64,000 bases of DNA from Candidatus Promineofilum glycogenicum. GTDB taxonomy: Bacteria > Chloroflexota > Anaerolineae > Promineifilales > Promineifilaceae. The stretch covers positions 176,556 through 240,555 of the forward strand of contig JADJHJ010000010.1 of the NCBI GenBank assembly GCA_016707605.1. Direction: 5' to 3'. Below, piece after piece: positions 1 to 55,494 of this stretch. The translations under genes were made by a program, and so were the position numbers. Position 1 is the first letter of the stretch; every line of letters starts with the position of its first letter. The notes beneath the pieces are model-generated. The model had not been told where the DNA came from. It searched no databases and saw nothing but the letters and a program-made list of their open reading frames with translations.

Positions 1-1161
1 GGCAACAAGACCGTTTCGGCCGTCTTCGAGATCGCCCCGGTTTTCACCGTCAACGTCACCTCGGCCGGCAACGGCTCGGTGGCCGTCGACCCGCCCGGCA
101 CGCAGTTCACCGCCGGCACGCAGATCACCCTGACGGCCACGCCGTCCGAAGGGTTCTTCTTCGCCGGCTGGACGGGCAGCCTGGTCAGCAACAAGAACCC
201 CACCGTGCTGACCGTGGACGGCAACAAGAACATCATCGCCCACTTCACCGACGAGCCAGCCCCCCAGTCCGACGACTTCGCCGGTTGCGGCACGCCCAAC
301 GCCATGTGGACGTGGGTTGACCCGCTCGGCCAGGCCGACTACCGGATGACCGGCACACAGCTCAAGATCGTCATTCCCCCCGACGTCAACTATGAAGCGT
401 GGCGCAACGGCAACGAAGCGGCGCGAATGATGCAAGAGGTCGGCAATCTGGACAACTTCTCGCTGGTGGTCAAGCTGCAATCGGTCGTCACCCAGGGCTA
501 CCAGGCGCAGGGCATCATCATCGAGGCGGATGAAGATCACTTCATTCGTTTTGATCTCAACTACATCCCTGAAGACGAAGAAGGTGTCTCGCCGGTGAAG
601 CTGTTTGCCGGCACGGTTGAGAATGGAGTCGGCAAGATCAAGAAGAACGTGCCGATTACCATCAGCGGTTCCGACATCTACATCATGATCCGGCGCTTCG
701 GCGACGAGTGGCGGATGTACTACCGCTTCCAGAACTCCGGGCCGTGGACGGGCATCGGCAAGTTCAACTTTGTCCTAGACGTGCAGCGCGTCGGCGTCTT
801 TGCCGCCAGCCACCACCCCACGGGCAGCGAGAACGCCCCCGGCCACACGGCCACCTTCGACTTCTTCTTCAACGAAGATTCACCCATCGCCCCCGAAGAC
901 GGCAACGCGCCGGGCATCGTCATCAACAAGGTCGGCCAGGGCACTGTCACCCAGACGCCCGCCGGCCCCGACTACACTTGCGGCCAGCAGGTTCAACTGC
1001 GGGCCGCGCCGGCCAGCGGCTGGCGCTTCCAGAACTGGAGCGGCGATCTGAACGGCAGCAGCCTCAACCTGCCGCTGACCATCAGCCGCAAGCACACGGT
1101 CACGGCCACCTTTGTCCAGTTGACCAGCTTTGACCTGTTCCTGCCCGTGGCTATTCGTTAG
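1..1161 (+). CDS. Large secreted/surface protein, C-terminal part (5' end outside window): InlB-B-repeat-like module, LamG/concanavalin-like jelly-roll, terminal InlB-B repeat, ends ...LFLPVAIR
   Basis: Frame 1 is open from nt 1 into listed ORF 79..1161. The 'GW(T/S)G(D/S)' repeat signature and 'FDFFFN' LamG-like block are shared with CDS 1562..5563 and 14871..18588. Stop TAG at 1159-1161. Confidence 0.7.
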   Translation, partial: GNKTVSAVFEIAPVFTVNVTSAGNGSVAVDPPGTQFTAGTQITLTATPSEGFFFAGWTGSLVSNKNPTVLTVDGNKNIIAHFTDEPAPQSDDFAGCGTPNAMWTWVDPLGQADYRMTGTQLKIVIPPDVNYEAWRNGNEAARMMQEVGNLDNFSLVVKLQSVVTQGYQAQGIIIEADEDHFIRFDLNYIPEDEEGVSPVKLFAGTVENGVGKIKKNVPITISGSDIYIMIRRFGDEWRMYYRFQNSGPWTGIGKFNFVLDVQRVGVFAASHHPTGSENAPGHTATFDFFFNEDSPIAPEDGNAPGIVINKVGQGTVTQTPAGPDYTCGQQVQLRAAPASGWRFQNWSGDLNGSSLNLPLTISRKHTVTATFVQLTSFDLFLPVAIR

Positions 1162-1171
1162 CCGCGGCCAA

Positions 1172-1203
1172 GGCGGGCCGCCCGGTTAGCCGGGCGGCCC
1201 GCC
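1172..1203 (+). terminator. GC-rich perfect hairpin (GGCGGGCCGCCCGG-TTAG-CCGGGCGGCCCGCC) directly after the stop codon
   Basis: 14-bp perfect inverted repeat with a 4-nt loop, 11 nt after the stop; no U-tract follows, so an intrinsic terminator is plausible but not certain. Confidence 0.45.
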
Positions 1204-1561
1204 ACTTAAGAGGCGTTGTAAGCCGACGCCGCTATTCTGGCCATAGTGAGTCCCACGCCGATCGGGGTGGGCCTTAAAATGGAATGAACAAACCGGCTGA
1301 TAGGACTCTAATCGTACTTGGAGCCGCCATCCGTTTACCGGCTCGTGACCGGCAACGACCCCCTTATCGGTAACACCCACGCCCAGCCGGCGTACTGGAA
1401 TTTGCATACCGCTGTGGCCCACGCCGCGGCGACAACGTGAATTGGTTTGACCGGGAAGTGGCATCATCGCTTTCACTCAGGCAAAGCGCTGTGCCCCATC
1501 GAGGCAACTTCCACTCCCGGCTCGTTCTGATGTAGTCGATATTGCCTGGATAGAGGGAACC

Positions 1562-4500
1562 ATGTTAAGGAGCAATACACGCACTCTCTTTCTCGTCTTG
1601 GCCCTGGGCCTGTTGGGCGGGCTAGTGATGATTCGCCCGACGGCCGTCGAGGCCGGCATCTTCAATGCCAGTAATCAGGTCACTTACAAAGAGTACTGGG
1701 TCCACCATGACGAATTGACCGGCGGCTGCAACGCCGACGGCACGCCGACACACCCCGGCGGCACATGGTACATGGAAGTCGGCACGCGCCAGCGCTGCCC
1801 CAAGACGGTTGAATTCACCGTGCCCGATGATTTCAGCAACGCGGCCAAGGTCGAAATCTACCTTGACCTGTGGCGCGCCTACCATGAGCGCGGCCTCCAG
1901 TTCGAGATGAACGAAAGCGGCGTCGTCCATACCTCGCCCGTTGGCTATGACTGGAGCCGCACGCCCTGGATTCTGGAAGTTGACAAGGCCGAGTTAGAGC
2001 CTGGCCTGAATACCATCACCTTCTGGGCCACCCGGCTGACCCACATCCACGACATCGGCATTCGCATCTATCACAACAACGACAACCCGCTGCTGCCCGG
2101 CCCCGGCGGCGACGTGGAACCGCCGAACGGCCAACTGGTCTCCATTGAGGATGACGGCGGCGTCGTTTCGCCCGATGCCGGCGGCACGTTGATGGTCAAC
2201 GGCAATCAGTTGAAGCTGACGGCCGACATCTCGCCCGACACCCTCTACGTCGAGTTCCACGCCTGGTATGAAGGCTACGACGAGGACAACGACGGCGTCT
2301 TCCGCGACTGGCACAACCTGGGCCGCAACAACTGGTGGCCCGGCGGCCGCGAGGAGTTAGTCACCGGCGGCACCATCAACCACATCGCCACCGTCAAGCC
2401 CAAGAACAGCGCGACGACGGTGTCCACGACGTGGAACATGACCCACATCACCAACCAGTCGTTGATCAAGTTCAAGATCCGTGTGGTGGACGCCGCGGGC
2501 AACGTGCGCGAAGGGGCGGGCGGTATCTCGTCCGACTTCAAGTTGATGCGCAACGTACCCGTCAACGCCTTCATCCTCCACGACTTCACCGACTTCGGCC
2601 TGCACATGGACGGCAATCGGCCTGACTCGGTCAGCTACAACTTCATTATGCCGTCCACCATTGTCGACTACTACACCGAGTCGATTCTGGTCGGGGCCTA
2701 TTGGCGCAACCCCGCCTTCGCCATCAATGGTAGCGGCGGCATCTCGGCCAACTCCCCCGACTGGTCACTAGGGATCAAGTCGTTCCCCAAGGGCTACCTG
2801 GTCGCCGGGCTGAACCGCATCACCTATCAATACACCAATGGCGCCGGCCAATTTGTGGAGTACCCCGGCCCGATGTTCGTCCTGCGCCGGTCGGCGCCAG
2901 GCCCGGCCGACAACACCCCGCCGATCATCGGCGGCCAGTTGCCGGCGCCCAACGCGACCAACGTCGACGTCAAATCGCCCATCACCGCCCGCATCAGCGA
3001 CGACAAGTTCGGCGTTGACTGGCAGACGGTCAAGGTCACGGTCAACGGCGAGGACGTGACCAACAAGACCGACATCCAGGGTGTCATGGGCGACTACCTG
3101 CTGGTCTATGACCCGCCCGGCAACCTCGACTTCTCCACCGAGTACACGGTCAAGATCGAGGGCTGCGACCTGCTGAACAACTGCGCGTCGGCCGTGAACT
3201 ACAAGTTCAACACCGCCGCGCCCGACACCGCGCCGCCGGCCATTACCAACGTGGTGGCCGAGCCGCTGCCCAATGGCGTCAACATCAGTTGGACCACCAG
3301 CGAACCGGCCACCAGCCGCGTCGAATATGGCAAGACGACCAACTACGAGTTGGGCGTGGTCGAAGACACGACGCTGAAGACCAGCCACTACGCCGAAATC
3401 CGCGGCCTGCAACCCAGCACCCGCTACCACTTCCGGCTGAAGAGCACCGACGAGCAGGGCAACACCGCCACGACAAACGACAACACCTTCGACACGACCG
3501 AGTTCGGCGACCTGCTGTCCGATGACTTCAACGCCTGCGTCCTCGATTCGATGTGGACGGAGTTCGACCCGCAGGGCAATACCACCCTGAGCATGTCGGG
3601 CGAGACGCTGTCGCTGAGCTTCCCCGCCGGCGGCGCCCACGACTGGACGACCGGCGGCCCGCCGCGCGTCATGCAGTTGGCCGGCGACGTCGACTTCACC
3701 GTTGAGGTCAAGTTCGAATCGGCGTTGACCGTCCCCGGCCAGATGCAGGGCATCCTGATCGAAGAGGACGACGACACCTACGTCCGCGTCAGCTTCGAGC
3801 GCACGGCCACGGCCACGATCATGTTCTCGCGCTTCGTCAGCAACGGCGTCACCGTCAAGAGCGCCACCACGTCCTTCACCGATGGCACGGTCATCCCCAA
3901 CATGCTGCGCGTCAAGCGCGTCGGCGATAGCTTCCAGCGCTCCTACTACCAGGACGGCCAGTGGAAGGGGCAGGCGGCCTACACGATGGACATGACCCCC
4001 ATCCACGTCGGCGTCTTCGCCGGTGCGGCCGGCGCGGGCGGCACGGCTCCGGCCCACACCGCCGTCGTCGATTACTTCTTCAACACCGACATCCCCATCG
4101 TGCCCGAAGACGGCAATCCGATGAGCGTCGCCGTGGCCGTCGTCGGCAACGGCAGCGTGACCAAGCAGCCCAACAAGACCGTCTATACCTGCGGCGAGGA
4201 AGTCGTGCTGAGCGCGGTGACCGTCCCCGGCTGGTCGTTCGGCGGCTGGAGCGGCGACGTGACCGGCAGCGACCCGATGGCCTCGGTCATCATTGACGGG
4301 CCGAAGAACGCCACCGCCACCTTCACCCAGGATCAGTACGTCCTCAACGTGGCCATCGAAAACGACGGCGTCGGCGGCGAGCAGAACGCCGTGACGAAAA
4401 GCCCCGACCAGGCGACCTACGTCTACGGCGACCAGGTGCAACTGACCGCCGTGCCCCAACCGGGCTGGTCGTTCGTCGGCTGGACGGGCGCGGTCAACAG

Positions 4501-5563
4501 CGCCTCGCCCACCGTCATGCTGACGATGAACGAGAGCAAGTCCGTCACGGCCAAGTTTGAGCAGGATCAGTATGACCTGACGCTCAACGTCATCAACAAC
4601 GCTGTTGTGCCGGGCAGCGTCGGCGGGACGGTCTCGGCCACGCCGCAGAAGACGACCTACGTTTATGGTGACGTGGTCACGCTGCAAGCCAACACCAATC
4701 CCGGCTGGACATTCTCCGGCTGGAGCGGGGCCGTCACCTCGACTAATGCCACCGCGCAATTGACAATCACCGGCGACGCGGTCGTCAACGCCACCTTCAT
4801 CCAGGATCAGTACGAACTCGAAGTCGAGGTCGTCAGCCTGGGCAAGTCGGGCGTCGGCGGCTCCGTCTCGCTGAACCCGGCCAAGGGCAGCTACGTCTAC
4901 AACGACGTGGTCACCCTGGTGGCCGAGGCCAACGCCTGCTGGTCGTTCACGCGCTGGGAAGGCGACCTGAGCGGCACGAACGCGGTGGAAACGCTGACGG
5001 TGACGCGCGACATGGACGTGACCGCCGTCTTCACCCAGAATCGCCACACGCTGACCGTCAACAAGACCGGCCCCGGCCAGGTCGCGGTGACGCCGCAGAT
5101 GGCCGAATACTACTGCGGCGACAGCGTCACGCTGACGGCCACGCCGTCGCCCAACTTCTTCTTCACCGGCTGGTCGGGCGACCTGACCGGCGCGGAGAAC
5201 CCGCTGACCTTCACCATCGAGAAGAACACCGTCGTCACGGCGACCTTCTCCAACAACCCGCCGCCCATCGTCGAGCCGATTCCCGACAAGACGGTGAGCC
5301 TCAACGAACTCGTCACCTTCGCGGTGCGGGCCACTGACCCCGGCGGGACGACGGTCACGCTGACGGCCAACGGCCTGCCGCAGGGCGCGACGTTCGTGGA
5401 CAACGGCGGCGGCACAGGCACGTTCACCTGGCGGCCCAGCATCTCCCAGAGCGGCGAGTACACCATCACCTTCATCGCCTCCGATGGCAACGGCCAGGGC
5501 AGCCAGACCGTTCTCATCACCGTTGAAGGCCAGGCGGTCGTCTTGCCGATGATCATCCGCTAG
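1562..5563 (+). CDS. Giant secreted multidomain surface protein (1333 aa): signal peptide, Fn3-like domain, LamG-like jelly-roll, ~7 tandem divergent InlB-B repeats, cadherin/Ig-like module, C-terminal ...VVLPMIIR
   Basis: N-terminal MLRSNTRTLFLVLALGLLGGLVMIRPTAVEA signal peptide. Repeated '...GW(S/T)F.GW(S/T)G.V.G....T.T(M/V)....VTA.F' units. The 'TSRVEYGKTT...RYHFRLKSTDEQGN' block is Fn3/PAP-N-like. The same 'GILIEEDDD...VDYFFN' LamG block as the other two giants. Confidence 0.8.
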   Translation: MLRSNTRTLFLVLALGLLGGLVMIRPTAVEAGIFNASNQVTYKEYWVHHDELTGGCNADGTPTHPGGTWYMEVGTRQRCPKTVEFTVPDDFSNAAKVEIYLDLWRAYHERGLQFEMNESGVVHTSPVGYDWSRTPWILEVDKAELEPGLNTITFWATRLTHIHDIGIRIYHNNDNPLLPGPGGDVEPPNGQLVSIEDDGGVVSPDAGGTLMVNGNQLKLTADISPDTLYVEFHAWYEGYDEDNDGVFRDWHNLGRNNWWPGGREELVTGGTINHIATVKPKNSATTVSTTWNMTHITNQSLIKFKIRVVDAAGNVREGAGGISSDFKLMRNVPVNAFILHDFTDFGLHMDGNRPDSVSYNFIMPSTIVDYYTESILVGAYWRNPAFAINGSGGISANSPDWSLGIKSFPKGYLVAGLNRITYQYTNGAGQFVEYPGPMFVLRRSAPGPADNTPPIIGGQLPAPNATNVDVKSPITARISDDKFGVDWQTVKVTVNGEDVTNKTDIQGVMGDYLLVYDPPGNLDFSTEYTVKIEGCDLLNNCASAVNYKFNTAAPDTAPPAITNVVAEPLPNGVNISWTTSEPATSRVEYGKTTNYELGVVEDTTLKTSHYAEIRGLQPSTRYHFRLKSTDEQGNTATTNDNTFDTTEFGDLLSDDFNACVLDSMWTEFDPQGNTTLSMSGETLSLSFPAGGAHDWTTGGPPRVMQLAGDVDFTVEVKFESALTVPGQMQGILIEEDDDTYVRVSFERTATATIMFSRFVSNGVTVKSATTSFTDGTVIPNMLRVKRVGDSFQRSYYQDGQWKGQAAYTMDMTPIHVGVFAGAAGAGGTAPAHTAVVDYFFNTDIPIVPEDGNPMSVAVAVVGNGSVTKQPNKTVYTCGEEVVLSAVTVPGWSFGGWSGDVTGSDPMASVIIDGPKNATATFTQDQYVLNVAIENDGVGGEQNAVTKSPDQATYVYGDQVQLTAVPQPGWSFVGWTGAVNSASPTVMLTMNESKSVTAKFEQDQYDLTLNVINNAVVPGSVGGTVSATPQKTTYVYGDVVTLQANTNPGWTFSGWSGAVTSTNATAQLTITGDAVVNATFIQDQYELEVEVVSLGKSGVGGSVSLNPAKGSYVYNDVVTLVAEANACWSFTRWEGDLSGTNAVETLTVTRDMDVTAVFTQNRHTLTVNKTGPGQVAVTPQMAEYYCGDSVTLTATPSPNFFFTGWSGDLTGAENPLTFTIEKNTVVTATFSNNPPPIVEPIPDKTVSLNELVTFAVRATDPGGTTVTLTANGLPQGATFVDNGGGTGTFTWRPSISQSGEYTITFIASDGNGQGSQTVLITVEGQAVVLPMIIR

Positions 5564-5662
5564 TCAAGATTAGGCGACTTCGCGGCCAGGGCCGCTGCAC
5601 CGCAGCGGCCCTGGCCCAATGGCGCGACGCCGGCGCTGATAGTAAACAAGGAGATACAACGC

Positions 5663-6433
5663 ATGAAAGTTGGCATTCTGGCCGGTGGGCATGGCACACG
5701 CCTGGCCGAAGAGACAGAGATCAAGCCCAAGCCGATGGTCGAGATCGGCGGCCGGCCCATCCTGTGGCACATCATGATGCACTACTCGTGCTTCGGCCAC
5801 AACGATTTCGTCATTGCCCTGGGCTACAAGGGCGAAGTCATCAAGCGCTACATGGTCGATTACTGCTCGCTGAACAGCAATCTGACCATCAACCTGAAGG
5901 CCGGGCGCGTTGACCTGCACGACACCGAGGGCATTCAGGACTGGACCATCAACCTGATCGACACCGGCCTGCACACCATGACCGGCGGACGCATCAAGCG
6001 CCTCCAGCCCTACATGGGCGACAAGACGTTCATGCTGACCTGGGGCGACGGCGTCTCCACCGTCGATCTCAGCCGGCTGCTGGCCTTCCATCGCGCCCAC
6101 GGCCGTCTGATCACCATGACCGCCGTGCGCCCGCCCGCCCGCTATGGCCACATGGAGTTCGACGGCGACCGCATCCGCGAGTTCACCGAGAAGCCCCAGA
6201 CGGCCGAAGGCTGGATCAACGGCGCGTTCTTCGTCGCCGAGCCGCAGGTCTTCGACTACATCGACGGCGACGACACCCAATTCGAGAAAGAGCCGCTGGA
6301 GCGCCTGGCCGCCGAGGGCGAGCTGATGGCCTATAAGCACGACGGCTTCTGGCAATGTATGGACACCCGGCGCGACAAGTTCGTGCTGGAGAAACTTTGG
6401 GACAGCGGGGAAGCCCCCTGGAAGATCTGGTAA
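5663..6433 (+). CDS. rfbF: Glucose-1-phosphate cytidylyltransferase
   Basis: MKVGILAGGHGTRL...KPKPMVEIGGRPILWHIM...MTGGRIKR closely matches RfbF/DdhA. AAGGAG RBS upstream of ATG 5663. Confidence 0.9.
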   Translation: MKVGILAGGHGTRLAEETEIKPKPMVEIGGRPILWHIMMHYSCFGHNDFVIALGYKGEVIKRYMVDYCSLNSNLTINLKAGRVDLHDTEGIQDWTINLIDTGLHTMTGGRIKRLQPYMGDKTFMLTWGDGVSTVDLSRLLAFHRAHGRLITMTAVRPPARYGHMEFDGDRIREFTEKPQTAEGWINGAFFVAEPQVFDYIDGDDTQFEKEPLERLAAEGELMAYKHDGFWQCMDTRRDKFVLEKLWDSGEAPWKIW

Positions 6434-6454
6434 GTTAGGAGGACTCAATACATC

Positions 6455-7495
6455 ATGCGCGTTCTAGTGACTGGTCATAACGGCTATGTGGGTACGGTGC
6501 TCGTGCCCATGCTTCTGAAAGCGGGCCACGAAGTCGTCGGCCTGGATAGCAACTTGTATCAGGCGGCCACCTTCGGCGAGGAGGATGCCCCCGCCATCCC
6601 GGCTATCCAGCGCGACGTACGCGACGTGACCTACGAAGACCTCGACGGCTTCCAGGCCATTTTGCACCTGGCCGGCCTGTCCAACGACCCCCTGGGCGAC
6701 CTCAACCCGGCGTTGACTTACGACATCAACCACCGCGCCTCCGTCCGCATGGCCCAGATGGCCAAGGAACTGGGCACGGAGCGCTTCATCTTCTCGTCCT
6801 CGTGCAGCAACTACGGCGCGGGCGTCGATGACTGGTTGACCGAAGAGTCGGCCTTCAACCCGGTGACCCCCTACGGCAAGTCGAAGGTCATGGTCGAGCA
6901 GGACGTGGCCAAGCTGGCCGACGATAGCTTCAGCCCCACCTTCCTGCGCAGCTCCACGGCCTACGGCGTCTCGCCCCGCCTGCGCTTCGACCTGGTGCTC
7001 AACAACCTGACCGCCTGGGCCTACACCACCGGCCTGGTCTACCTGAAGAGCGACGGCACGCCCTGGCGGCCCGTCGTCCACATCGAGGACATGTCCCTGG
7101 CCTTCGTCGCCGCCCTGCACGCGCCGCGCGAACTCATCCACAACGAGGCGTTCAACGTCGGCCGCCCCGAAGAGAACTACCGCATCCGCGAACTGGCCGA
7201 GATCGTCGCCGAGACCGTCCCCGGCAGCCGGGTCGAGTTCGCCGAAGGGGCCAGCCCCGACAAGCGCAACTACCGCGTCGACAGCAGCAAGATCGCCCGC
7301 GTCCTGCCGGAGTACAAGCCCAAGTGGACGGCCCGCGCCGGGGCCAAGGACCTCTACGAGGCCTATCAGCGCGTCGGCCTGAAGCTGGACGAGTTCGAGG
7401 GGCCGCGCTACCGCCGCATCGACCACATCAAGATGCTCATGTCCAGCGGCCGGCTCGACAACGCCCTGCGCTGGCGCGAGGCCGTCCCCGCCTGA
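6455..7495 (+). CDS. NAD-dependent sugar epimerase/dehydratase (extended SDR)
   Basis: N-terminal Rossmann motif [11 protein letters not shown] and catalytic YGKSK; AGGAGG RBS; adjacent to CDP-sugar genes. Confidence 0.8.
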
Positions 7496-7500
7496 TGCCA

Positions 7501-7556
7501 AAACCGCAGATTTCGCAGATTAAAGAGAATAAATCTGCGAAATCTGCGGTTTTATC
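7501..7556. repeat. Palindromic 'cagatt' family element (gcagatttcgcagatt...aatctgcgaaatctgc)
   Basis: Near-perfect inverted repeat between two CDSs; related copies at 24412, 25905, 26966, 27285, 27420 and 44165. Confidence 0.7.
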
Positions 7557-7566
7557 GAGTACTCCT

Positions 7567-8841
7567 ATGTCAATCTATACCACCGAAACCGGCGACCGCA
7601 TCACCGGCTCGCCCAACCTGGAAACCATCATCGCCTTTGGCGAGACGCCCCTGGCCGACCGCCTGCTGCGCGCCGACCAGCTCGACGAGCCGGCCCTGAA
7701 GGCCCCCCTGACCCTGGCCTTCTGCCCCGACTCGTCGCTGGCCCAAATTCGCGAGACGGTCAACCCGGAGATTCTCTTCTACGCCGAGTACCCCTACTTC
7801 TCGTCGGTCTCGCAATCGCTGCTGAAGCACTTCCGCGAGAGCGCCGAGTACATCATGGACACCCGGCCGCTCGGCCCCGACAGCCTGGTCATGGAAGCCG
7901 CCAGCAACGACGGCTACCTGCTGAAGAACTTCGCCGAGCGGGGCATCCCCGTGCTGGGCATTGACCCGTCGGTGGCCCCGGCCACGGCCGCCCGCGAAGC
8001 CGGCATCCCGACGATGATCACCTTCTTCACCCGCGACCTGGCCGCCCAACTGGTGGCCGAGGGCAAGGCGGCCGACGTCTTCCTGGCCAACAACGTCCTG
8101 GCCCACGTGCCCGACCTCAACGGCTTCGTCGCCGGCATCAAGACCGTGCTGAAGCCGACCGGCGTGGCCGTCATCGAGTGCCCCTACGTCGTCGATCTGG
8201 TCGATCACGTCGAGTTCGACACCATCTACCACCAGCACCTGTGCTACTTCTCCATCACCGCCCTGGACAAGCTCTTCCGCCAGCACGGCCTGTACCTCAA
8301 CGACGTCAAGCGCACCCGGATTCACGGCGGTTCGCTGCGCCTCTTTGTCGAGCCGGTGGAAAAAGTCGGCCCGGTCGTCACCGAGATGTTGGCCACGGAG
8401 CGCGAGCGCAAGGTGGACACCATCGAGTACTACCGCGACTTCGCCGGCCGCGTGGCCCACGTCCGCGACAGCCTGCTGGCCATCCTGCGCGACCTGAAGG
8501 CCCAGGGCTGCCGCATCGCCGCCTATGGCGCGGCGGCCAAGGCCACGACGATGCTGGCCTACTGCGGCATCGATTCGTCGCTGGTGGACTACGTCGTCGA
8601 TCTGAACAAGTACAAGCACGGCCGCTACATGGGCGGCAACCACCTGCCCATCTACCCGGTCGAGAAGCTGGTGGAAGACCAGCCCGACTACGTGCTGATC
8701 CTGGCCTGGAACTTCGCCCAGGAGATCATGCGCCAGCAGTCGGCCTATGCTGAGGCCGGCGGCCGTTTCATCGTCCCTATCCCTGAGCCGCGCATCATCG
8801 AGCCGCAGGCTGTCGCGCCGCTCCAGGGCGTGGTGATGTAG
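7567..8841 (+). CDS. SAM-dependent sugar C-methyltransferase family protein (TylCIII-like class I MTase with C-methyltransferase C-terminal domain)
   Basis: The listed ORF begins inside the palindromic element, so the ATG at 7567 ([10 protein letters not shown]...) is the likely start. The [28 protein letters not shown] block is the class I SAM-binding motif, and the C-terminal region resembles the NDP-hexose C-methyltransferase family. The N-terminal Zn-ribbon cysteines are not evident. Confidence 0.65.
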
Positions 8842-8859
8842 CCTCTCAAGAGAGCGAGC

Positions 8860-9825
8860 ATGGCGACTTCACCTCATGTAACCCGACCGACCGGCCGCGG
8901 CCGCCGTGGCCTCGGCCGGCGGCTGGGCCGCTTCGGCAAACGGGCCTTCATCTCCGTGTTGGGCGAAGACCGCTTCCTGCGTGCCCGCGCCGCCCACCAT
9001 CTGCGCCGCCGCCGCCGCCACGGCCAGGGGTTGCTGCTCGTCCATACGATGGGCAAGGTCGGCTCGACCACCGTCGGCGCCTCGCTGCGCCAGCAGGGCA
9101 TCCGCCGCACGATGGCCATGTACCAGCCCCACTTCCTCAGTGATGAGGGCCGGGCCTTCGCCGAACAACTGGCCACCCAGGGCGTGGGCGGCTGGGAGCA
9201 GTTGGTCAAGAAAGAGCGCAGCGACTTCCTGCGCAGCCGGCTGCTGGGCCAGGAACTGGCGCGTATGCGCGCCGAGGGCGAACGGGTGAAGATCATCACC
9301 ATGGTGCGCGACCCGGTGGCCACCAACGTCTCCGGCCTGTTCCATAATCACACCTGGTGGCCGGCGGCGCTGAAGGCCGAGTGCGCCGCCGGCTCGCCCG
9401 GTTGCCTGGATGCGCTGAGCCAATACTTTCTGAACAGCTATCCCCACGACGTGCCGGAGACGTGGTTCGACATGGAGTTGCGCGCCCTCTATGGCGTGGA
9501 CGTCTATGCCCAGCCGTTCGACCCGCGGCGCGGCTATGCCGTCTACCACAGCGACACGGCCGACGTGCTGCTGCTGAAGCTGGAGACACTCAACCAGGTT
9601 GGGGCGGCGGCCGTGCGCGACTTTCTGGGCCTCGCGGCGTTCGAGTTGGTGCCCAGCAACACGGCCGAGGATAAGTCCTACGCCGACCTCTATAAAGCCT
9701 TCCGCCGCCAGGTGCATTTGCCCGCGGCCTATCTCGACCGCGTCTACGGCTCGCGCATGGCGCGTCACTTCTACGCGCCCGAGGAACTGGCCGCCTTCCG
9801 CGGCAAGTGGTCGGCTGCCCAATAA
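8860..9825 (+). CDS. Sulfotransferase-family-like protein (putative)
   Basis: 'LVHTMGKVGSTTV' resembles the 5'-PSB (PKxGTT) motif of PAPS-dependent sulfotransferases, and 'MVRDPVATNVS' resembles the 3'-PB region. Weak and motif-only. Confidence 0.35.
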   Translation: MATSPHVTRPTGRGRRGLGRRLGRFGKRAFISVLGEDRFLRARAAHHLRRRRRHGQGLLLVHTMGKVGSTTVGASLRQQGIRRTMAMYQPHFLSDEGRAFAEQLATQGVGGWEQLVKKERSDFLRSRLLGQELARMRAEGERVKIITMVRDPVATNVSGLFHNHTWWPAALKAECAAGSPGCLDALSQYFLNSYPHDVPETWFDMELRALYGVDVYAQPFDPRRGYAVYHSDTADVLLLKLETLNQVGAAAVRDFLGLAAFELVPSNTAEDKSYADLYKAFRRQVHLPAAYLDRVYGSRMARHFYAPEELAAFRGKWSAAQ

Positions 9826-12900: not shown

Positions 12901-14156
12901 TCGGCCACAACGGCCATCTGGTTGAGCGGCGCGCCGATTGCCTGCCGCGTCCACGCCCCGCCGGGCGCGCCGGGGTTGCGGTACCACCACGCCCCGGCGA
13001 TCACGTCCGGCCGGTTGTCGCCGTCCAGATCGGCCGTGTCGACGAAAACGGCCCGCCGCGGGCGAGCGTCGTCGATGAGATGGGTCGTCCATTGCGCCAG
13101 CGGCTCGCAAGCCGGCGGGTCGCCGGCCGGGCCGTTGAGCCAGATGTCCAGCCGCGGCGTGTCCCACAGAAAGGGCTTACCCAGAATGTCCAGGTCGCCG
13201 TCGTTGTCCAAATCGGCCAGGCGCGACTCATGGTTGCCGTAGCCCGTGGCCACCTGCTGCGCGACAAAGTTGCCCTGGCTGTCGCCGTACAGCGCCAGCA
13301 GGCGGGCGTCGGCGTTTTCGGGTACGTCACTGCTAATGGTGCGCTGTTCGGCGATCAGCAGGTCGAGGTGGGCGTCGCCGTTGATGTCGCCGACGTCGAG
13401 CGAATGGCCATGCAGAACCGGGCCGATGTCCAGCGTGTGCCCCACCCAGGCTGCTCCGTCCCACTGGAACCAGCGCGCCGGACCGTCGCCGTCGCCGGGA
13501 ACCTGCACGATCTCCGGCCGGCCGCCGGGAACAAGCTGGGCCGCGGCCACACGAGCGAAGGGAACCGCCTCGATGAGGTGGGCAGTGAAGCCGTTGCCTT
13601 CGCGCTTGAACCAGCGCCCGCCGCCGATGATGTCGCTGCCGCCGTCGCCGTCCACGTCGGCCTGGGTCAGCCCTTCGTACTGGTTCGAGGGTGCTGTCCA
13701 GACGGTGGTCACGCCTGGCCAGGGCTGCGTGCCGCGCGGGTCGGCCGGTACGTTGACCAGCGATAGTTGCGCCGCGCCCTGATTCCAGAACACCAACTCT
13801 GCCCCCGGATCGTCGTCGAAGTTGCCGAACATCATATCGTGGTGCTTATTGGCCCCGCTGTCCTTGATGACCCGGCGCGTCCAGTCGCCGCTATAGGTCG
13901 GATAGGGGTTCTCCCACCACCAGATGTCGTTGTTCTGGTTGTTGGTTCCGGCGGCCACGTCCAGGTCGCCGTCGCCGTCGATGTCGTGGAACGCGCCGCC
14001 GGCCTCCAGTTGCAGGGCGTCGGTCTCGATCACCTGACGCGTCCAGCCCGTGGCGTCGCGACGATACCAGACCAGGGCCGGGCCGGGGTTGCGCCGCGCG
14101 CCGATGATGAAGTCGTTGTCGCCGTCCTCGTCCACGTCGAAGACGAACGTCAGCAC
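9963..14156 (-). CDS. Very large FG-GAP/VCBS-repeat (integrin-alpha-like beta-propeller) surface protein, ~1400 aa, with TP-rich linkers
   Basis: Many 'DxDGDGDxD' calcium-binding FG-GAP loops (DIDGDGDLD, DLDGDGDAD). Three propeller modules separated by T/P/A-rich linkers. The ORF starts at GTG 14156 with no signal peptide; see the next feature. Confidence 0.75.
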   Translation of the reverse strand: MLTFVFDVDEDGDNDFIIGARRNPGPALVWYRRDATGWTRQVIETDALQLEAGGAFHDIDGDGDLDVAAGTNNQNNDIWWWENPYPTYSGDWTRRVIKDSGANKHHDMMFGNFDDDPGAELVFWNQGAAQLSLVNVPADPRGTQPWPGVTTVWTAPSNQYEGLTQADVDGDGGSDIIGGGRWFKREGNGFTAHLIEAVPFARVAAAQLVPGGRPEIVQVPGDGDGPARWFQWDGAAWVGHTLDIGPVLHGHSLDVGDINGDAHLDLLIAEQRTISSDVPENADARLLALYGDSQGNFVAQQVATGYGNHESRLADLDNDGDLDILGKPFLWDTPRLDIWLNGPAGDPPACEPLAQWTTHLIDDARPRRAVFVDTADLDGDNRPDVIAGAWWYRNPGAPGGAWTRQAIGAPLNQMAVVADLDGDGDADILGTELEGAQDHLGNDFVWARNNGAGGFTIHTNVPAGSGNFLQGAVVGSFSGAGPQVALSWHNMAGGTEALSVPANPTGAPWPLASLAATAAGEEISAGDIDRDGDLDLLLGAQWLENNAPDWTAHTLFDAAHEADRNRLVDMDGDGDLDAVIGFEGISVIRPVAWYEQPADPTALWVEHAIGTVVGPQSLDVGDLDGDGDVDVVIGEHNLAQPAAGRVLVFENRNGGWREHLVATGHEHHDGTQLVDIDGDGDDDIVSIGWSHGNVLLYERRACAGQPDATPTPTAAATATPTATATATATTAPPGHAYLLSSSSGGNVSGIAFADEDILRFDINSGQWSLYLDGSDVGLVGSDIDALHGLNDGTLLLSVDTAITLSGLAVDDSDVVRFVPTSLGANTAGSFSLYFDGSDVGLTTNVEDVDGLSMTAAGLLLSTNGNATVSGASGRDEDLLLFAPASLGETTAGTWSLYFDGSLMGLGQSGEHVAAASAGPGGPLYLVGSARTQIGDLVAGTADIFSCALAGTGAATACQPAPSFVWRGAQYSYGNEAIDALALAGDGAPQPTSTATPTATATPGPTATPSATPPACAGTSAIGQWQWQRHVIDAARPGRATFLFTFDVNGDGRDDVLTGKFWYANPGAPGGVWPRTQLPAPIEDVIAAHDFDGDGDRDLLASTGATEPMDESAWWPFVWARNEGGGVFTVFDKLDVAGITMPPNDPIQGVAIARMTPGGPLQIVVTWDDTEKPNRNPHGVQMFTVPANPATQTWPRQKISDVSTGEQLTAVDLDDDADLDVFMGHIWLRNNHPAATWTPITIFEVGDTQASRHELVDIDGDADLDAFIGYSHDPEGRKVAWHEQGNSPQATWPHHLITNLTRGHAESLDAGDLDGDGDPDVIIGEYNMVSAQERPASLWIFENLGQGDSWAQHLVYDGDSHYQSSQAYDIDGDGDVDILSKGWHHGRVHLYENVTCAP

Positions 14157-14478
14157 TTGCTGGGTGCTGTTGGAGGGAGGGGGGTAAGTCGCCCGTGGCT
14201 GTTGACAGGTGTTGCCAGGGCAGGTTCGTGGAAGCGTTGCTCAGCAGCGCGGGGGCCAGGGCTATGAACTGCTGGTCAGAGCTGAGGCGTGTCGCCACTT
14301 CGGGCGCCTCTTGTACGGTGGCGTGCGCGTCCAGCCAAACCCAGCCAAACAGGATGCCCAGCGGGCCAAGTAGCCACCAGATGGCCAAAGCGAATCCCTC
14401 TCTCACGCGTATCTCTCCTTTGGCAGCCGGCGCTCCTGCGCCAACCGCGTCTATCGCACCCCGCAGGGCAGGCAGCAC
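14157..14478 (-). other. Probable N-terminal signal-anchor segment of the FG-GAP gene, in a different frame (frameshift at or near the C6/G6 run 14179-14184)
   Basis: ORF 13891..14478 encodes a hydrophobic segment FALAIWWLLGPLGILFGWVWL followed by an S/T/P linker. Its frame overlaps the FG-GAP frame, which is open back to 14244. Removing one C from the 6-C run gives a continuous signal-peptide-to-propeller protein. Confidence 0.4.
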
Positions 14479-14870
14479 AACATACGAGGCGAGCTTGCGC
14501 CTTGCAGCAACTGGCGGTTCTCTTGTCCGCGACGGTTCCCTTGGGAGGTGGCGATAGTATCACACGACCGCGATACGACAACCCCGCGTTCAGTAGAGAG
14601 GGGCGGCATTATGACCTAATTCACAGACGTGTGTTCTGGTACTTGCCCAATACAAAATACCAGCCAACAAATGAGTAGATACTCCATTAAGAAAGACTGT
14701 AAGCCATGCCTCCTATGCTACAGGTGACACCAGTGGCCGCGAGCGCGCGGCCCTGCCTCATAGCAAGGAGTAATCGAACCGGCTGGCTATCGGGCGGCCG
14801 AGCACCGCCCTCTTAAGGAGACTCGTTCGCCGCGCGACGATCTCGACACGTCTTGGGGTAAAGTAAATAC

Positions 14871-17800
14871 ATGAGCAGAAAAGTACAGTTACGCTTTCTC
14901 TTGACCATCTGCCTGCTGGCCTGCGGCGCGGCGCTGCTACCGGCGGCCCGTCCGTTGGGCGCCGCGCCCGACGCCTTTGGCCTGACGGTCAACGTCAACC
15001 CGGCCGGCAAAGGCTCGGTCAGCGTCAACCCGCCGCCGCCCTATAACAACGGCCAGGTCGTGACCCTGACGGCCACGCCCATCGCCGGCTGGACGTTCGA
15101 CAAGTGGGCCTTGGCCAGTGATCTCGTCTGGTGGGACGCCGACTGGGACTACCGCGTCGAGGTGACGGCCGCCGCCGCCGGCCACGCGCGCAAGAACAAG
15201 CCGGCCGAGTTCGCCCTCAACTTCACCCAAATCTGGAGCACGCTGGGCAAGACGGGCACGCTCGACCCCAACTCCATCCGCGTCGTCGAAGTGGACGCCA
15301 ACGACGCCGTCATCGACGCCGACGTGCCCTTCCAGTTTGACAAGGCCGGCGACTACCACGCCGCCAACAAGGCCGCCGGCACGCTGGTGCTCATCATGCA
15401 GGGCAACACCCCCGCCGGGGCCAGCCGCCGCTACCACGTCTACTTCGACGTGACCGGCAAGGGCTTTGCCCCGCCCGCCGTCGCCCCACAAGTTGTCCTG
15501 ACCGACGGCGTTGTTGACGAGAATAACGCCGCCTACAAGATCGAGACGCCCAATGGCGTCTACTACTATCATCTGCTCGGCGCCGGCTTCTCCAGCCTCG
15601 ATGACGCCGACGGCAACGACTGGATCGGTTTCCATTACAACGTCGCCGGCAGCGGCGGCAAGTTCCGCGGCATCCCCAATGCCGTTTCGCCCAACAACGG
15701 CGGCCACTTCCACCCCGGTTCCAAAACGATGATCAGCACCCTGGTCAGCCAGGGGCCGCTGAAGGTCACGATCCACGCCCAGGAGAAGAAACCGACCGCC
15801 GGCCGCCCCAAGTGGCAAGGTCAATTCGAGATCTACCCCGACTACGTTGTCTTCACCATGCTGGTCGCGCCCTATGAGTATTGGGTGCTCTATGAGGGCG
15901 CGCCGGGCGGGACGCTGAATATCAGCAGCGACTTTGTCATGCGCAGCAATGGCACGCAAACCCTGGCCTCGGTGGCCTGGGAAGGGGATTTGGAGCCGGA
16001 GGAGTGGGCCTACGTGGGCGACCCGACCCTCGGCCGCTCCCTCTTCCTCACCAACAACATCGAAGACACCAAAATCGACTCCTACCACCAGGATGACGGG
16101 GATATGACCGTGCTGGGCCTGGGCCGCAAGAGCGCCGACTACCAGCTTGACCCCCTGCTTGTGCCGCGCGAATTCACCTTCGGCCTGATGGAAGAAACGG
16201 TCTACGCCGACGCCAAGCCGGTCATCTACAACGCCTACAAGCCCCTGACGGCCACCGTCGGCGCGGCCGAGGCGCGGGCCGGGGCCAACCTGGGCAGCAC
16301 CAACCCGGTCAACTTCACCATCACCGGCCAGCACACCATCACCGCCCACTTCAAGCCGGTGCAGTACACCCTGAACGTGGTCGCCAGCCCGGCCGACAAG
16401 GGTTCGGTCACTAAGTCGCCCAACAAGACCAGCTACGACTTCAACGAGCCGGTCACGCTGACGGCCACGCCCATCGCCGGCTGGGCCTTCGCCGGCTGGA
16501 GCGGCGACGTGACGGGCACGACCAACCCGGTCACGGTCAACGTGACCAAGAATATGAACGTCACGGCCACGTTCGCCCAATCCTTCACCATCACCACCAG
16601 CGTTAGCCCGACCGGTGGCGGCACGGTGACGCTGAACCCCAACAAGGCCACCTATGCGCCGGGCGAACAGGTGCAGGTGACGGCCACGGCCAACAGCGGC
16701 TACTCCTTCACCAACTGGAGCGGCGACCTGAGCGGCACGAACCCGAGCCAGACGGTGACGGTCAACGGCAACCTCAACATCGTCGCCAACTTCAGCGCCG
16801 CGCAATACACCTTCACCGCCACCTCGTCCGGCAACGGCGGCGTGAGTTGGACGCCACAGAAGGCGCTCTACGGCGCGGGCGAGGTTGTGACGGCCACGGC
16901 CACGCCCAACTCCGGCTACTACTTCGTCGGCTGGACGGGGACAGGCAGCTTCACGTCGACGGCCAACCCGGTCGAAGTGACCATCGCCGGCAACACCACC
17001 ATCACCGCCCACTTCGCGCCCATCGTCTACTATACACTGACGGTCAACGCCGTCGGCGGCGGCACGGTGTCGCGCGATCCTGACCTGACCCAATACCCGA
17101 CGGGCACGGTCGTCACCCTGGAAGCCACGCCCAACGCCCAAAAGCGCTTCGCCAACTGGAGCGGCAGCGTCACCGGCACGGTCAACCCCATCCAGGTGAC
17201 GATCACCAGCAACATGGCCGTCACGGCCAACTTCGTGGACGACGTCTACCCGCTGACCACCAGCGTCACCGGCCAGGGAACTATATCGGCCCAACCCGAC
17301 CAGCCGGCCGGCTACTTCATCGGCCAGCAGGTGACGCTGACGGCCACGCCGGCCGTGGGCTGGCAGTTCGTCGAGTGGTCGGGCGACGCCAGCGGAACCT
17401 CGCCGACGACGACAATCACCATCGCCGGGGCGACCAACGTCACCGCCGCCTTCACCCAACTGCCTCCGGTCACGCTGACCACCAGCACGGCCGGCAACGG
17501 CACGGGCACGATCCAGATCAACCCCGACAAGGACGAGTACGCCGTGGGTGAACAGGTGACACTGACGGCCGTGCCCGGCGCTAACTCCGTCTTCGCCGGC
17601 TGGTCGGGCGACGCCAGCGGCAGCAATAATCCGCTGCAACTGACGATGAACGGCAACAAGAACGTCGTGGCCCGCTTCATCGTGCCCAGCGGCCCGTTCA
17701 GCGACAACTTCAACACGTGCAGCCTGGGCGCGGTGTGGGGCACGCCTATCGACGAGAACGGCGACACTACCTTCACCTACACCGGCAAGACCCTGCGCAT

Positions 17801-18588
17801 CGCCGTGCCCGAAGGCGACGATCACGTCATCAACAAATCCCTCAACAACGCCCCGCGCATCATGCAGGCCGCCGACGACACCGACCTAGACTACGTCGTC
17901 AAGTTCAACTCCGACGTCACCCAGAGCGTGCAGACGCAAGGCCTGGTCATCGAAGAGAGCGACGAGAAGCTGATGCGGGTGGACTTTTACTATAACCCCA
18001 ACCAGGAGCCGGGCGTGCCCAACGACGAGGTCGTCGTCTACGCCGGCGTCTGGACGCCAGGGGTACTGCAAGAAGAAGCTCCTGCCCATCGCCGCCGCCG
18101 ACGCCAACTACCTGCGCGTCACCCGCGTCGGCGTCAAGTGGACCGTCTTCTATAGCGCCACCGGCCAGGAAGACGACTGGCAGAAGGCCGATGACTTCAA
18201 CTACGCCATGAGTGTGAACCGCGCCGGCGTCTATGCCAGCAACCTGCGGCCCACCGGCGCGACCGTGGCCCCGGCCTTCACGGCCGAGATCGACTTCTTC
18301 CACAACGCCACCGGCGCGCCGCTGCCGGCCGACGCCCCGCTGCTGACGGTCAACGTCGTCGGCAACGGCGCGGTCAGCGCCACGCCGCCGGCGGCGCAAC
18401 TGGCCTGCGGCCAGACGGTCACGCTGCGGGCCACGCCCGGCCTGGGCATGGAGTTCAGCGGCTGGAGCGGCGACGCCATCGGCGCGCAGAACCCGCTGTC
18501 GATGGTCATCAACCGCCCGCGCACGGTAACGGCTACGTTTACCGGGGCGGCTATGCAGTACATTGCCTTGCCGATGATCATTCGATAG
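14871..18588 (+). CDS. Giant secreted surface protein 3 (~1240 aa): signal peptide, InlB-B repeat, DUF2341-like region, ~8 InlB-B repeats, LamG-like jelly-roll, terminal InlB-B repeat, ends ...IALPMIIR. Apparent +1 frameshift near 18058-18085.
   Basis: ORFs 14871..18155 and 18208..18588 belong to one gene. 'ANYLRVTRVGVKWTVFYSATGQ' (frame of the second ORF, open from ~18050) aligns with 'NMLRVKRVGDSFQRSYYQDGQ' of CDS 1562..5563. The frame break lies in ccaggggtactgcaagaagaagct. Signal peptide MSRKVQLRFLLTICLLACGAALLPAARPLGA. Confidence 0.7.
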
Positions 18589-55491: not shown

Positions 55492-55494
55492 CCC

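Follow-up and report, generated by a model that had tools for sequence, protein, structure and literature searches.

The closest described counterpart of the protein tails reported here is the YLP-box, which NCBIfam already models as a 'YLP-box putative sorting motif' in the entries NF050076.1 (sort_motif_YLP, 11 positions) and NF053834.1 (ultrashort_CTERM, 10 positions), with curated cut-offs of 15 bits and 10 bits, respectively. The entries are labelled 'putative', and in the literature we found no paper, mechanism, partner enzyme or experimental evidence of sorting, cleavage or attachment for the YLP-box. Its canonical form, [VIL][YF]LPL[VI]xR, has exactly four residues from the proline to the C-terminus, with L-P-L fixed and Y or F at -7. 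Since NCBIfam curates the YLP-box, the tail class is not unprecedented; the tails described below are probably a hitherto unrecognised variant of this known orphan, putative sorting signal.

Tail-bearing proteins of the window

The window (the whole 64-kb stretch of DNA that was analysed) encodes on its forward strand three LamG/InlB-B giants with the C-termini FDLFLPVAIR, QAVVLPMIIR and QYIALPMIIR, in each of which the stop codon follows directly after the terminal Arg. The first-pass annotation had given these three endings, with stops at 1161, 5563 and 18588, and they proved correct when the ORFs were re-read in the sequence, although its treatment of gene 3 as a single ORF did not stand because of a 1-nt frameshift.

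Giant protein 1 is represented by its C-terminal 386 codons (1..1161), the ORF running off the window start. It has two InlB-B (Flg_new_2) repeats and a DUF1349/LamG-like domain, with the tail at 1129-1158 and the stop at 1159-1161, and its orthologues in two other loci have 1539 aa (L162, ending FLPMAIR) and 1497 aa (L160, ending FLPVAIR). Giant protein 2 (1333 aa, 1562..5563) begins with the signal peptide MLRSNTRTLFLVLALGLLGGLVMIRPTAVEA and contains Big_5, fn3 and DUF1349/LamG-like domains, five InlB-B repeats and a terminal He_PIG/Big_9 Ig domain, followed by the tail at 5531-5560 and the stop at 5561-5563. The motif had been described as following the last InlB-B repeat, which does not hold for this protein, where the Ig domain (aa 1234-1321) precedes the tail. 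Giant protein 3 (14871..18588, approximately 1238 aa with the frames joined) has a signal peptide, at least seven InlB-B repeats, a LamG-like domain and then a final InlB-B repeat, with the tail at 18556-18585 and the stop at 18586-18588. Here the frame-0 ORF (14871-18155) needs joining to the tail-bearing frame starting at about 17995, and the frameshift was placed approximately at 18069..18075, in the tract GCAAGAAGAAGC. In the alignment with the intact orthologue in L162 (1238 aa, ending ISLPVIIR), one frame covered aa 1-1069 and the following frame aa 1040-1238. A second gene of the window, encoding a Peptidase_S58 protein, is also split (42474-43232 and 43199-43732), which suggests assembly indel errors; gene 3, too, probably owes its frameshift to an indel of the assembly.

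A fourth tail carrier had been overlooked beside the three giants. This is a 774-aa protein unrelated to them (58854..61178), with the signal peptide MTTLTRLLAALLTALLIVAAAPAAAQ, an N-acetylmuramoyl-L-alanine amidase (Amidase_2) domain, a Golvesin_C domain and the ending NFVLPFVVSN (61146-61175; stop at 61176-61178). By inspection, proteins 2 and 3 and the amidase each begin with a basic segment, a run of hydrophobic residues and an AxA-like site. The endings of the FG-GAP giant (...ENVTCAP) and of the beta-helix giant (...QCSPLTTTP) are indeed different, as had been stated. Among the conserved neighbours of the giants, which we regard as context rather than signal, are sugar and capsule genes on the same strand (5663..9825) encoding an NTP_transferase, an NAD-dependent epimerase/dehydratase, a C-methyltransferase and an NKWYS capsular-polysaccharide protein; the same gene order was found beside the orthologous giants in L162, and in L160 the giants are flanked by sugar genes.

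The tail takes the form of two hydrophobic residues, [L/M]-P, three further hydrophobic residues and then R or a short polar end at the free carboxyl group (9-10 residues), and it is preceded by InlB-B, He_PIG or post-Golvesin_C segments, which are three different domain types. The pattern LP[VMLIA][AILVM][ILVM]R occurred four times in the six-frame translation of the whole window, three of these occurrences being the C-termini of the giants and the remaining one lying inside a 7-codon ORF; the same six-frame search confirmed that the internal InlB-B repeats carry no such motif. The tail in the window is real and non-random, beyond what chance would give.

From the canonical motif to the window tails

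The canonical form is almost confined to Chloroflexota, which account for 79 of the 120 genome hits. In this phylum the pattern was followed by a stop codon in 76 cases and by TGG in three, whereas elsewhere the ratio was 24:17. The pattern ended ORFs of at least 200 aa in 55 hits, and 11 further ORFs were cut by the locus edge. Among ORFs that had not been used as search seeds, about seven C-terminal tails stood against seven internal ones over approximately 190,000 aa, a roughly 70-fold positional enrichment, and the unseeded position -8 was V, L or I in 49/62. Signal-peptide-like N-termini, called with a home-made heuristic rather than SignalP, were present in 25 of 30 complete tail-bearing ORFs compared with 54/290 other ORFs. 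The carriers comprised 56 mutually unrelated proteins and 77 Pfam families, all of extracellular type, and included enzymes (amidase and S8, C25 and trypsin-like peptidases). A small number of internal YLP boxes also exist (L055, L039). In homologues with a choice-of-anchor Q domain, approximately 42/120 had YLP-like tails behind the DIGAYE end, and the same place was occupied by PEP-CTERM-like signals (4), LPXTG-like signals with a transmembrane helix and a basic end (4-6) or dockerin-like modules (4); the YLP tail is interchangeable with known anchor modules behind this domain.

The tail pattern was matched by 116 of 120 homologues of protein 2 and loosely by three more (119/120 with a proline-centred hydrophobic tail), and across 28 orthologues at 50-91% identity the proline was invariant while the flanking linker varied. 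The tail was present on all giants of the syntenic clusters L160 and L162, and nearly all of the 120 amidase homologues (P0241-P0360) had a tail of the same kind (e.g. AIMLPVVQR, FILPVIAR, MVLPLILR, FLPIVLKN). The sources name the homologues as Promineifilum, Promineifilaceae, Ardenticatenaceae, Anaerolineae or Chloroflexota. This lineage can do without the terminal Arg, as in the endings GG, GP, SN, RP and KP, and this weakens models demanding an exact free -R-COOH. Homologues at 35-40% identity end in VYLPLVQR, VFLPLVSR and similar sequences, which match NF050076 and NF053834, and on this sequence evidence the window tails grade via distant homologues into the canonical [VIL][YF]LPL[VI]xR-COOH.

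The three giants themselves gave no match to NF050076 or NF053834 at E<=1 as full proteins or at E<=10 as 21-22-aa C-terminal peptides; the controls VYLPLVQR (17.2 and 16.7 bits) and KVYLPLIVR (17.1 and 15.1 bits) matched both models. Six of the 70 non-redundant tails of the giant family reached a YLP model, and tails of the window type were among the 64 without a match. As the window tails fall below both models, the case for calling them a YLP-box is built on position, on spacing and on the gradation among homologues. Protein 1 (L-F-L-P-V-A-I-R) agrees with the consensus at -8, -7, -6, -5 and -1. Proteins 2 and 3 (V-V-L-P-M-I-I-R and I-A-L-P-M-I-I-R) agree in L-P, spacing and terminal R but have V or A in place of Y/F at -7, the amidase tail (F-V-L-P-F-V-V-S-N) ends in SN rather than R, and M, V or F replaces the L after the proline in the window tails. 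The features in common with the YLP-box are placement at the extreme C-terminus (the giants end at the Arg, and two residues, SN, follow the amidase core LPFVV), an L-P core with three mostly hydrophobic residues and, in the giants, a terminal Arg, and presence on signal-peptide-bearing, unrelated extracellular proteins of Chloroflexota. In addition, the models are matched at the corresponding position by P0101, P0104 and other distant homologues of protein 2.

Explanations for the tail

We consider it likely that the four window tails represent the orphan YLP-box of Chloroflexota, an ultrashort motif for C-terminal sorting, in a form particular to their lineage, and that they are read by a shared factor. 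The window comes from a Promineifilaceae-type filamentous Chloroflexota bacterium, and in this scheme Sec exports each of four envelope proteins that carry the tail, namely the three LamG/InlB-B giants of a glycan-synthesis cluster and a cell-wall amidase. The tail is too short for a membrane span and is without the transmembrane helix and basic cluster of sortase/exosortase signals; after export a single shared factor, whose gene would lie elsewhere in the genome, may recognise it as a free C-terminal peptide. Candidates for such a factor are a protease, a transpeptidase or a receptor located in the wall or outer layer, and it would keep the cargo on the multilayered cell envelope rather than letting it diffuse off. 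The envelope of filamentous Chloroflexota is multilayered and includes an outer layer that is shared as well as a protein layer of unknown composition (PMC13319060), so there is a place to which proteins could be sorted. We infer the sorting function itself from sequence, and the same applies to recognition of the tail, cleavage, attachment target and destination envelope layer. The tag for C-terminal sorting, anchoring or processing that the first-pass annotation had proposed is supported by the diversity of preceding domains, by the predicted lack of structure in the tail, by conservation, by the links to signal peptides and cargo, and by anchor swapping.

An alternative that we hold to be possible but unlikely is that the tail acts as a sticky end on its own: a short hydrophobic peptide carrying a single basic residue, it would be held non-covalently at the outer face of the cytoplasmic membrane or by some hydrophobic constituent of the wall or outer layer, and neither a dedicated sorting factor nor cleavage would be involved. 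All of the tail is hydrophobic and it is predicted to be unstructured, its Promineifilaceae variant varies the terminal residue yet keeps the hydrophobic-P-hydrophobic core, and no partner gene was found near the carriers, as no gene family was recurrent in the 8-kb neighbourhoods of the 79 Chloroflexota loci. The lack of such a gene, and of any candidate sorting enzyme in the 64-kb window, counts against the shared-factor reading. However, shared sorting enzymes with many substrates are often encoded away from them, as Haft describes for myxosortase (10.1101/2023.06.07.544157). Moreover, a stretch of 7-9 hydrophobic residues interrupted by a central proline is too short to anchor a protein stably in the membrane, and the sequence specificity of the canonical motif (L-P-L, Y/F at -7, four residues after P) fits recognition by a protein better than generic greasiness. 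It is improbable that the tail is instead a structural element, either the last beta-strand or a strand donated to a neighbouring subunit for sheath or S-layer polymerisation, even though its hydrophobic alternation suits a strand and paralogous giants in a conserved glycan-synthesis cluster would be compatible with a lattice or sheath glycoprotein. The matches to the Flg_new_2 (PF18998) domain stop short of the tail, at ...TATF (profile positions 70-72 of 73), and AlphaFold2 modelled the two last domains of protein 2 with pLDDT >90 and the last 10 residues as a low-confidence coil (approximately 57); in this model the tail is not part of the domain fold. A terminal InlB-B strand, which the first-pass annotation had itself named as the case against its reading, was rejected on these domain boundaries and the predicted coil, on the motif-free internal repeats, and on the tails behind non-InlB-B domains. 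Polymerisation also gives no reason for a tail on the amidase and peptidases among the carriers, and it does not suit homologues that swap the tail for PEP-CTERM-like, LPXTG-like or dockerin modules.

A functionless C-terminus, inherited by paralogous duplication or gene conversion or arising as a by-product of a conserved 3'-end DNA element, is very improbable. The three giants have domains in common, and the tails of proteins 2 and 3 are near-identical as DNA (TTGCCGATGATCATYCGMTAG). The two LPMIIR copies nevertheless differ by synonymous changes only (ATC/ATT, CGC/CGA), so that conservation acts on the peptide and not on a DNA element, and orthologues encode the same residues by different codons. 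The proline is invariant beside a variable linker down to 50% identity, and the tail is also found on the unrelated amidase family and on the 56 mutually unrelated proteins across the phylum; taken with the synonymous differences, these observations largely refute a functionless tail.

Comparison with other sorting systems

The probable lineage variant of the YLP-box shares with the LPXTG/sortase system a C-terminal tag on Sec-exported surface proteins that begins with L-P, and an LPXTG-like signal occupies the exact site of the YLP tail in choice-of-anchor Q homologues. The window tails differ, however, in having no T-G, no hydrophobic stretch of at least 15 residues and no basic cluster, approximately nine residues ending the protein. 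No sortase was found in the window or the neighbouring loci, and TIGR01167, the LPXTG model, was absent from the NCBIfam hits of the window proteins. An LPXTG signal was rejected, as LPVAIR, LPMIIR and LPFVVSN lead straight to the protein end. The earlier statement that the motif matches none of LPXTG, PEP-CTERM and GlyGly-CTERM was borne out, and the same was found for MYXO-CTERM and PGF-CTERM: the window proteins had no NCBIfam CTERM match and no basic cluster, and in none did a transmembrane helix follow the last folded domain.

The logic of the PEP-CTERM/exosortase, PGF-CTERM/archaeosortase, GlyGly-CTERM/rhombosortase and MYXO-CTERM/myxosortase systems, with many substrates per enzyme, lineage restriction and numerous copies in each genome, would also be that of the YLP-type tail, and behind the choice-of-anchor Q domain PEP-CTERM-like tails can stand in its place. 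Haft's work on myxosortase indicates that enzymes of the CTERM type are not necessarily encoded beside their substrates (10.1101/2023.06.07.544157). Their signals, in contrast to the YLP-type tail, combine a signature motif with a transmembrane helix and an Arg/Lys cluster (approximately 20-30 aa), and a tail without a transmembrane helix cannot present a cleavage site in the membrane as CTERM signals do.

The Chloroflexota phylum is without BAM and LPS genes (PMC13319060). The type IX C-terminal domain (Por_Secre_tail), which is removed or exchanged by the sortase-like PorU, likewise serves the C-terminal sorting of varied secreted and surface proteins within a single phylum, but it is a folded beta-sandwich of approximately 70-100 aa needing an outer membrane, whereas the YLP-type tail has approximately nine unstructured residues. 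PTS1 (-SKL), KDEL and the CaaX box are made up of few residues, which are recognised either at the free C-terminus or at a fixed distance from it. The YLP-box shares such a fixed distance, with four residues after the proline, and its likeness to these eukaryotic signals would be an analogy only, across other compartments and other machinery and with no homology.

C-terminal tails of exported proteins in the window

The three giant LamG/InlB-B secreted proteins end, as the first-pass annotation had claimed, in FLPVAIR, VLPMIIR and ALPMIIR: the reading frames of protein 1 (1..1161, +), protein 2 (1562..5563, +) and protein 3 (14871..18588, +) terminate in ...FDLFLPVAIR, ...QAVVLPMIIR and ...QYIALPMIIR, with stops at 1161, 5563 and 18588, respectively. 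The tail, meaning here the last 9–10 residues, is hydrophobic and centred on a proline, and resembles the YLP-box, a curated C-terminal motif of Chloroflexota ([VIL][YF]LPL[VI]xR-COOH). The annotation had placed the motif after the last InlB-B repeat in each giant, which has to be amended for protein 2, where Pfam places He_PIG/Big_9, an Ig-type domain match (aa 1234–1321), before the tail. The contig collection has no record with the exact sequence of protein 2.

Gene 3 is interrupted: an ORF at 14871–18155 overlaps the frame bearing the tail, and an intact 1238-aa orthologue from the syntenic locus L162 aligns through residues 1–1069 in one frame and 1040–1238 in the next, which indicates a 1-nt indel at ~18069–18075, in the tract GCAAGAAGAAGC. 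The Peptidase_S58 gene of the window is also split, into overlapping ORFs (42474–43232 and 43199–43732, +) in different frames that span profile positions 1–171 and 180–306 of 307, which points to an assembly indel error and not a true pseudogene; this second split gene makes assembly indel errors the likelier cause of the interruption in gene 3.

Across the six frames of the 64-kb window (66% G+C), the class LP[VMLIA][AILVM][ILVM]R occurs four times, three of these being the C-termini of the giants and the remaining one lying in a 7-codon ORF, so that chance was rejected as the source of the tails. A DNA-level repeat was likewise rejected, since the two LPMIIR copies (proteins 2 and 3) show synonymous differences and the same tail residues are encoded by other codons in orthologues elsewhere, which places the constraint on the tail peptide and not on a DNA element. 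The annotation had also considered that the motif might simply be the last strand of the InlB-B domain. Pfam matches to the InlB-B repeat (Flg_new_2) stop at ...TATF, profile position 70–72 of 73, with the tail beyond; the motif is absent from the internal repeats; and AlphaFold2, run on the final 169 residues of protein 2 together with 28 orthologues, gives a mean pLDDT of 91.6, with both domains >90 and the last residue block as coil with an average of 57. The strand reading was rejected on these three grounds and the tail is, as observed in the domain matches and predicted by the model, an appendage.

A fourth secreted tail carrier, unrelated to the giants, is an N-acetylmuramoyl-L-alanine amidase with a Golvesin_C domain (58854–61178, +; 774 aa), which has the signal peptide MTTLTRLLAALLTALLIVAAAPAAAQ and ends in ...NFVLPFVVSN. 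The C-terminus of the M23 peptidase of the window has no tail. The FG-GAP giant (9963–14156, −; ...YENVTCAP) and the beta-helix/NosD/SpaA giant (35739–39593, −; ...NYQCSPLTTTP) were correctly described as ending differently, neither having the tail. Both have a Cys 3–8 residues before the C-terminus and a terminal Pro, with no YLP-type tail, and the likeness may be fortuitous or may reflect another C-terminal signal; the position of the FG-GAP gene is taken in L162 by a sulfotransferase gene. Elsewhere in the window (51684–56238, +), genes for an nSTAND1 NTPase (697 aa), a seven-repeat WD40 protein (54087–55301) and an EAD7/EAD1 protein (55495–56238) follow one another, apparently as a STAND module of the conflict or signalling type, unrelated to the tails.

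Conservation in Promineifilaceae and distribution of the canonical motif

Homologues of protein 2 came from MAGs named Promineifilum, Promineofilum or Chloroflexota, Promineifilum being placed in Ardenticatenia, Promineifilales. Among the best 120, a hydrophobic-P-hydrophobic tail was found in the last 22 residues of 116 and more loosely in three, and the one sequence without it is apparently truncated. The tail proline is invariant in orthologues at 50–91% identity, with conservative variation of the neighbouring residues; in the best 120 homologues the proline +4 residue is R in 73, G in 17 and K in 12, usually with 0–2 further residues after it. Two loci, L160 (Promineifilum sp. GCA_035444305.1) and L162, hold syntenic clusters with the same giants, all of them tailed (KVYLPMVIDK, LLLPLTVGNDPNKR, KLFLPVAIR, LVVPLILR, VFLPMAIR, VVLPMIIR, ISLPVIIR), adjoining NTP-transferase, epimerase, C-methyltransferase, NKWYS and sulfotransferase genes. 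The tail-bearing giants always lie inside a sugar-nucleotide/glycan cluster (window 5663–9825; L160; L162) of NTP-transferase, epimerase/dehydratase, sugar C-methyltransferase, NKWYS, sulfotransferase, GT1 glycosyltransferase and flippase genes, a setting which suggests that the giants are glycosylated, or bind a methylated/sulfated envelope glycan via LamG/DUF1349.

When metagenome contigs were searched for V[LV]P[LMI]I[LIMF]R-stop, there were 39 matches, most of which end in TGG (Trp) and are internal to transporters and sulfatase-like proteins, the sole convincing match being a 1511-aa protein (L145) ending in ...RIVLPIILR; no further family with the window variant came out of this search. 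The window-type variant was later found beyond the giants, on the amidase family, where nearly all of the 120 homologues listed are tailed (e.g. AIMLPVVQR, FILPVIAR, MVLPLILR, FLPIVLKN).

More distant homologues of protein 2 (35–40% identity) end in VYLPLVQR, VFLPLVSR, VFLPLVTR or IFLPLINRQ. A genome scan (one genome per species, GTDB) for [YF]LPL[VIM]xR followed by a TRR codon, written in G+C-rich codons, returned at least 120 loci, and 79 of the 120 listed are from Chloroflexota, covering Anaerolineae, Caldilineae, Chloroflexia (including Oscillochloris, Chloroploca and Herpetosiphonaceae), Thermoflexales and Ardenticatenia. TRR, which is either a stop codon or TGG (Trp), provides a built-in control: among the listed matches the ratio of stop to Trp was 76:3 in Chloroflexota versus 24:17 in other phyla. 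Of the Chloroflexota stop cases listed, 55 end ORFs of at least 200 aa and another 11 run off the locus, whereas 18 of the 24 in other phyla are ORFs of <100 aa. The pattern left position −8 free, yet V, L or I stands there in 49 of 62 cases. Non-seed ORFs in the locus flanks contained ~7 C-terminal tails and 7 internal occurrences in ~190,000 residues, a ~70-fold C-terminal enrichment. A simple heuristic assigned signal-peptide-like N-termini to 25 of 30 complete ORFs with the tail and to 54 of the 290 others. No relationship links the 56 long carriers to one another (mean column identity 7%), and the 77 Pfam families that they match are all of kinds usual in extracellular proteins (among them SdrD_B, CarboxypepD_reg, beta-helix, DUF11, Peptidase_C25, S8, trypsin, cadherin, PKD, RCC1 and LVIVD). 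Several MAGs gave two or three matches despite the narrow codon pattern, and carriers are therefore numerous per genome.

Among the 79 listed Chloroflexota loci, the only Dehalococcoidia match is a 74-codon ORF and there is none from Thermomicrobia or Ktedonobacteria; where the taxon label allows a call, the convincing listed matches belong to filamentous lineages, a distribution that may be genuinely phyletic or may stem from the codon-usage bias of the search pattern. Internal canonical boxes occur in L055:2473-5409 (−), as ...YRLYLPLVLRTDL... at residue 517 of a 979-aa ORF whose C-terminus is also a YLP box, and in L039:459-3134 (−), as ...FVYLPLIAKSLPPTPTPTPT..., 181 residues upstream of the end; they could be gene fusions after stop-codon loss, or internal processing sites. 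Three Thermoleophilaceae (Actinomycetota) MAGs encode an orthologous ~330-aa protein (L016:3000-3983, L030:6188-7189, L100:5369-6385) with a twin-arginine-like N-terminus (..RREFL..) and the C-terminus ...AYLPLMLR; the motif may occur here independently of Chloroflexota, or this end may simply be conserved within the family. A contig assigned to Deltaproteobacteria has an ORF of InlB-B-like repeats (L054:4093-4704, −) ending in ...FQLYLPLVVR; the contig was apparently misbinned and belongs to Chloroflexota, or the ORF was transferred horizontally.

The curated YLP-box and known anchoring modules

An NCBIfam scan of the 56 carriers matched two very short models, NF050076.1 (sort_motif_YLP; 11 positions, cut-off 15 bits) in 18 and NF053834.1 (ultrashort_CTERM; 10 positions, cut-off 10 bits) in 13, both described as 'YLP-box putative sorting motif-containing protein'. 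The canonical VYLPLVQR scores above the cut-offs (17.2 and 16.7 bits), the window tails gave no match to either model even at E<=10, and in the giant family 6 of 70 non-redundant tails were detected, all of the canonical type. No paper mentioning the motif was found, and the myxosortase preprint by Haft, 2023 (10.1101/2023.06.07.544157) does not mention it; the YLP-box, curated in NCBIfam, is therefore a database-level, orphan, 'putative' signal. The window tails are best read as an unrecognised lineage variant of this orphan, putative sorting motif and not as a new kind. The first-pass view of a tag that matches none of LPXTG, PEP-CTERM and GlyGly-CTERM stands, with the qualification that the class is already in NCBIfam.

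Seven of the 56 carriers contain a choice-of-anchor Q domain, with the tail at most 8–15 residues past the terminal DIGAYE motif. When this domain alone, with the tail left out, was used as the query, all of the best 120 matches were choice-of-anchor Q proteins, in which DIGAYE is followed by YLP-like ultrashort tails (~42), PEP-CTERM-like signals (PEP, transmembrane helix, RRR; 4), an LPXTG-like motif with transmembrane helix and basic end (4–6) or dockerin-like modules (4), the remainder running into further domains or being cut. These alternative endings mean that the YLP tail fills the slot of known anchoring modules. Some choice-of-anchor Q tails are lengthened by 1–4 residues (FLPLILKNY, YLPVVVKQ, YLPLVCGDAAP, YLPIIAGKD), which brings the sloppy endings of the window lineage within the natural range of the motif.

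Reading of the tail and comparison with known sorting systems

The carriers have export signals, and the tail is terminal, predicted to be disordered, conserved, largely restricted to one lineage, present on diverse cargo and interchangeable with known anchors; on these properties the sorting or anchoring tag proposed at first pass holds as an inference. Cargo would be exported by Sec, after which the tail would be read by a shared factor and the cargo kept on the envelope. In filamentous Chloroflexota the cytoplasmic membrane is accompanied by peptidoglycan, an inner layer and an outer layer that is shared and bears a lattice-like coat of uncharacterised protein; BAM and LPS genes are absent (PMC13319060). 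This layered envelope is a plausible destination.

In the canonical form, the fixed four residues from the proline to the free carboxylate suggest that the C-terminus itself is read. Judged from sequence, Promineifilaceae appear to have relaxed the free-C-terminus requirement, with Y/F at −7 and the terminal Arg dispensable (variants VLPMIIR, LPFVVSN and LPVVVGG), and to have kept the hydrophobic-[L/M]-P-hydrophobic x3 core, which suggests that the core is the part read by the partner. A bolder reading, possible if still short of probable, is that the YLP-type tail, Promineifilaceae variant included, represents a new mechanistic class: a ~9-residue signal that lacks a transmembrane helix and whose free C-terminus is recognised beyond the cytoplasmic membrane. 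The machinery that recognises it would have no relation to sortases, exosortases, rhombosortases or type IX secretion, and in each genome would bring enzymes and adhesins by the dozen to the outer layer shared by the filamentous cells or to their protein layer. That the hydrophobic tail is, rather than a signal read by a shared factor, a self-sufficient sticky end, with the canonical spacing to the carboxylate still to be accommodated, seems unlikely. A strand between subunits, set beside an end modelled as coil, is a good deal more improbable, and a functionless relic shared by paralogues is hardly credible in view of a tail carried by unrelated proteins.

Wastewater sludge, soils and hot springs all harbour abundant Chloroflexota, and to our knowledge the composition and assembly of their unusual multilayered envelope are not understood. 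A short envelope tag would make the surface proteome listable for any Chloroflexota genome, supply a phylogenetic-profiling query for the missing sorting machinery and might itself serve, being very small, as a tag in surface display. As the window shows, curated HMMs miss a whole lineage variant, that of Promineifilaceae, so that both pattern-based detection and the motif definition have to be made wider; the value of the finding lies in that wider definition and in a handle on envelope assembly.

LPXTG and PEP-CTERM signals have a transmembrane helix and a basic cluster, whereas the YLP-type tail has neither, so that it cannot work as a member of either class, and both assignments were rejected. 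The remainder of the window, annotated with Pfam, gave no sortase, rhomboid, CPBP or exosortase-like gene, and ORF clustering over the 79 listed Chloroflexota loci, searched for a recurrent neighbour as candidate sorting enzyme, gave no family in more than 4 loci. This matches one-enzyme/many-substrate systems, in which the enzyme is encoded elsewhere (10.1101/2023.06.07.544157).
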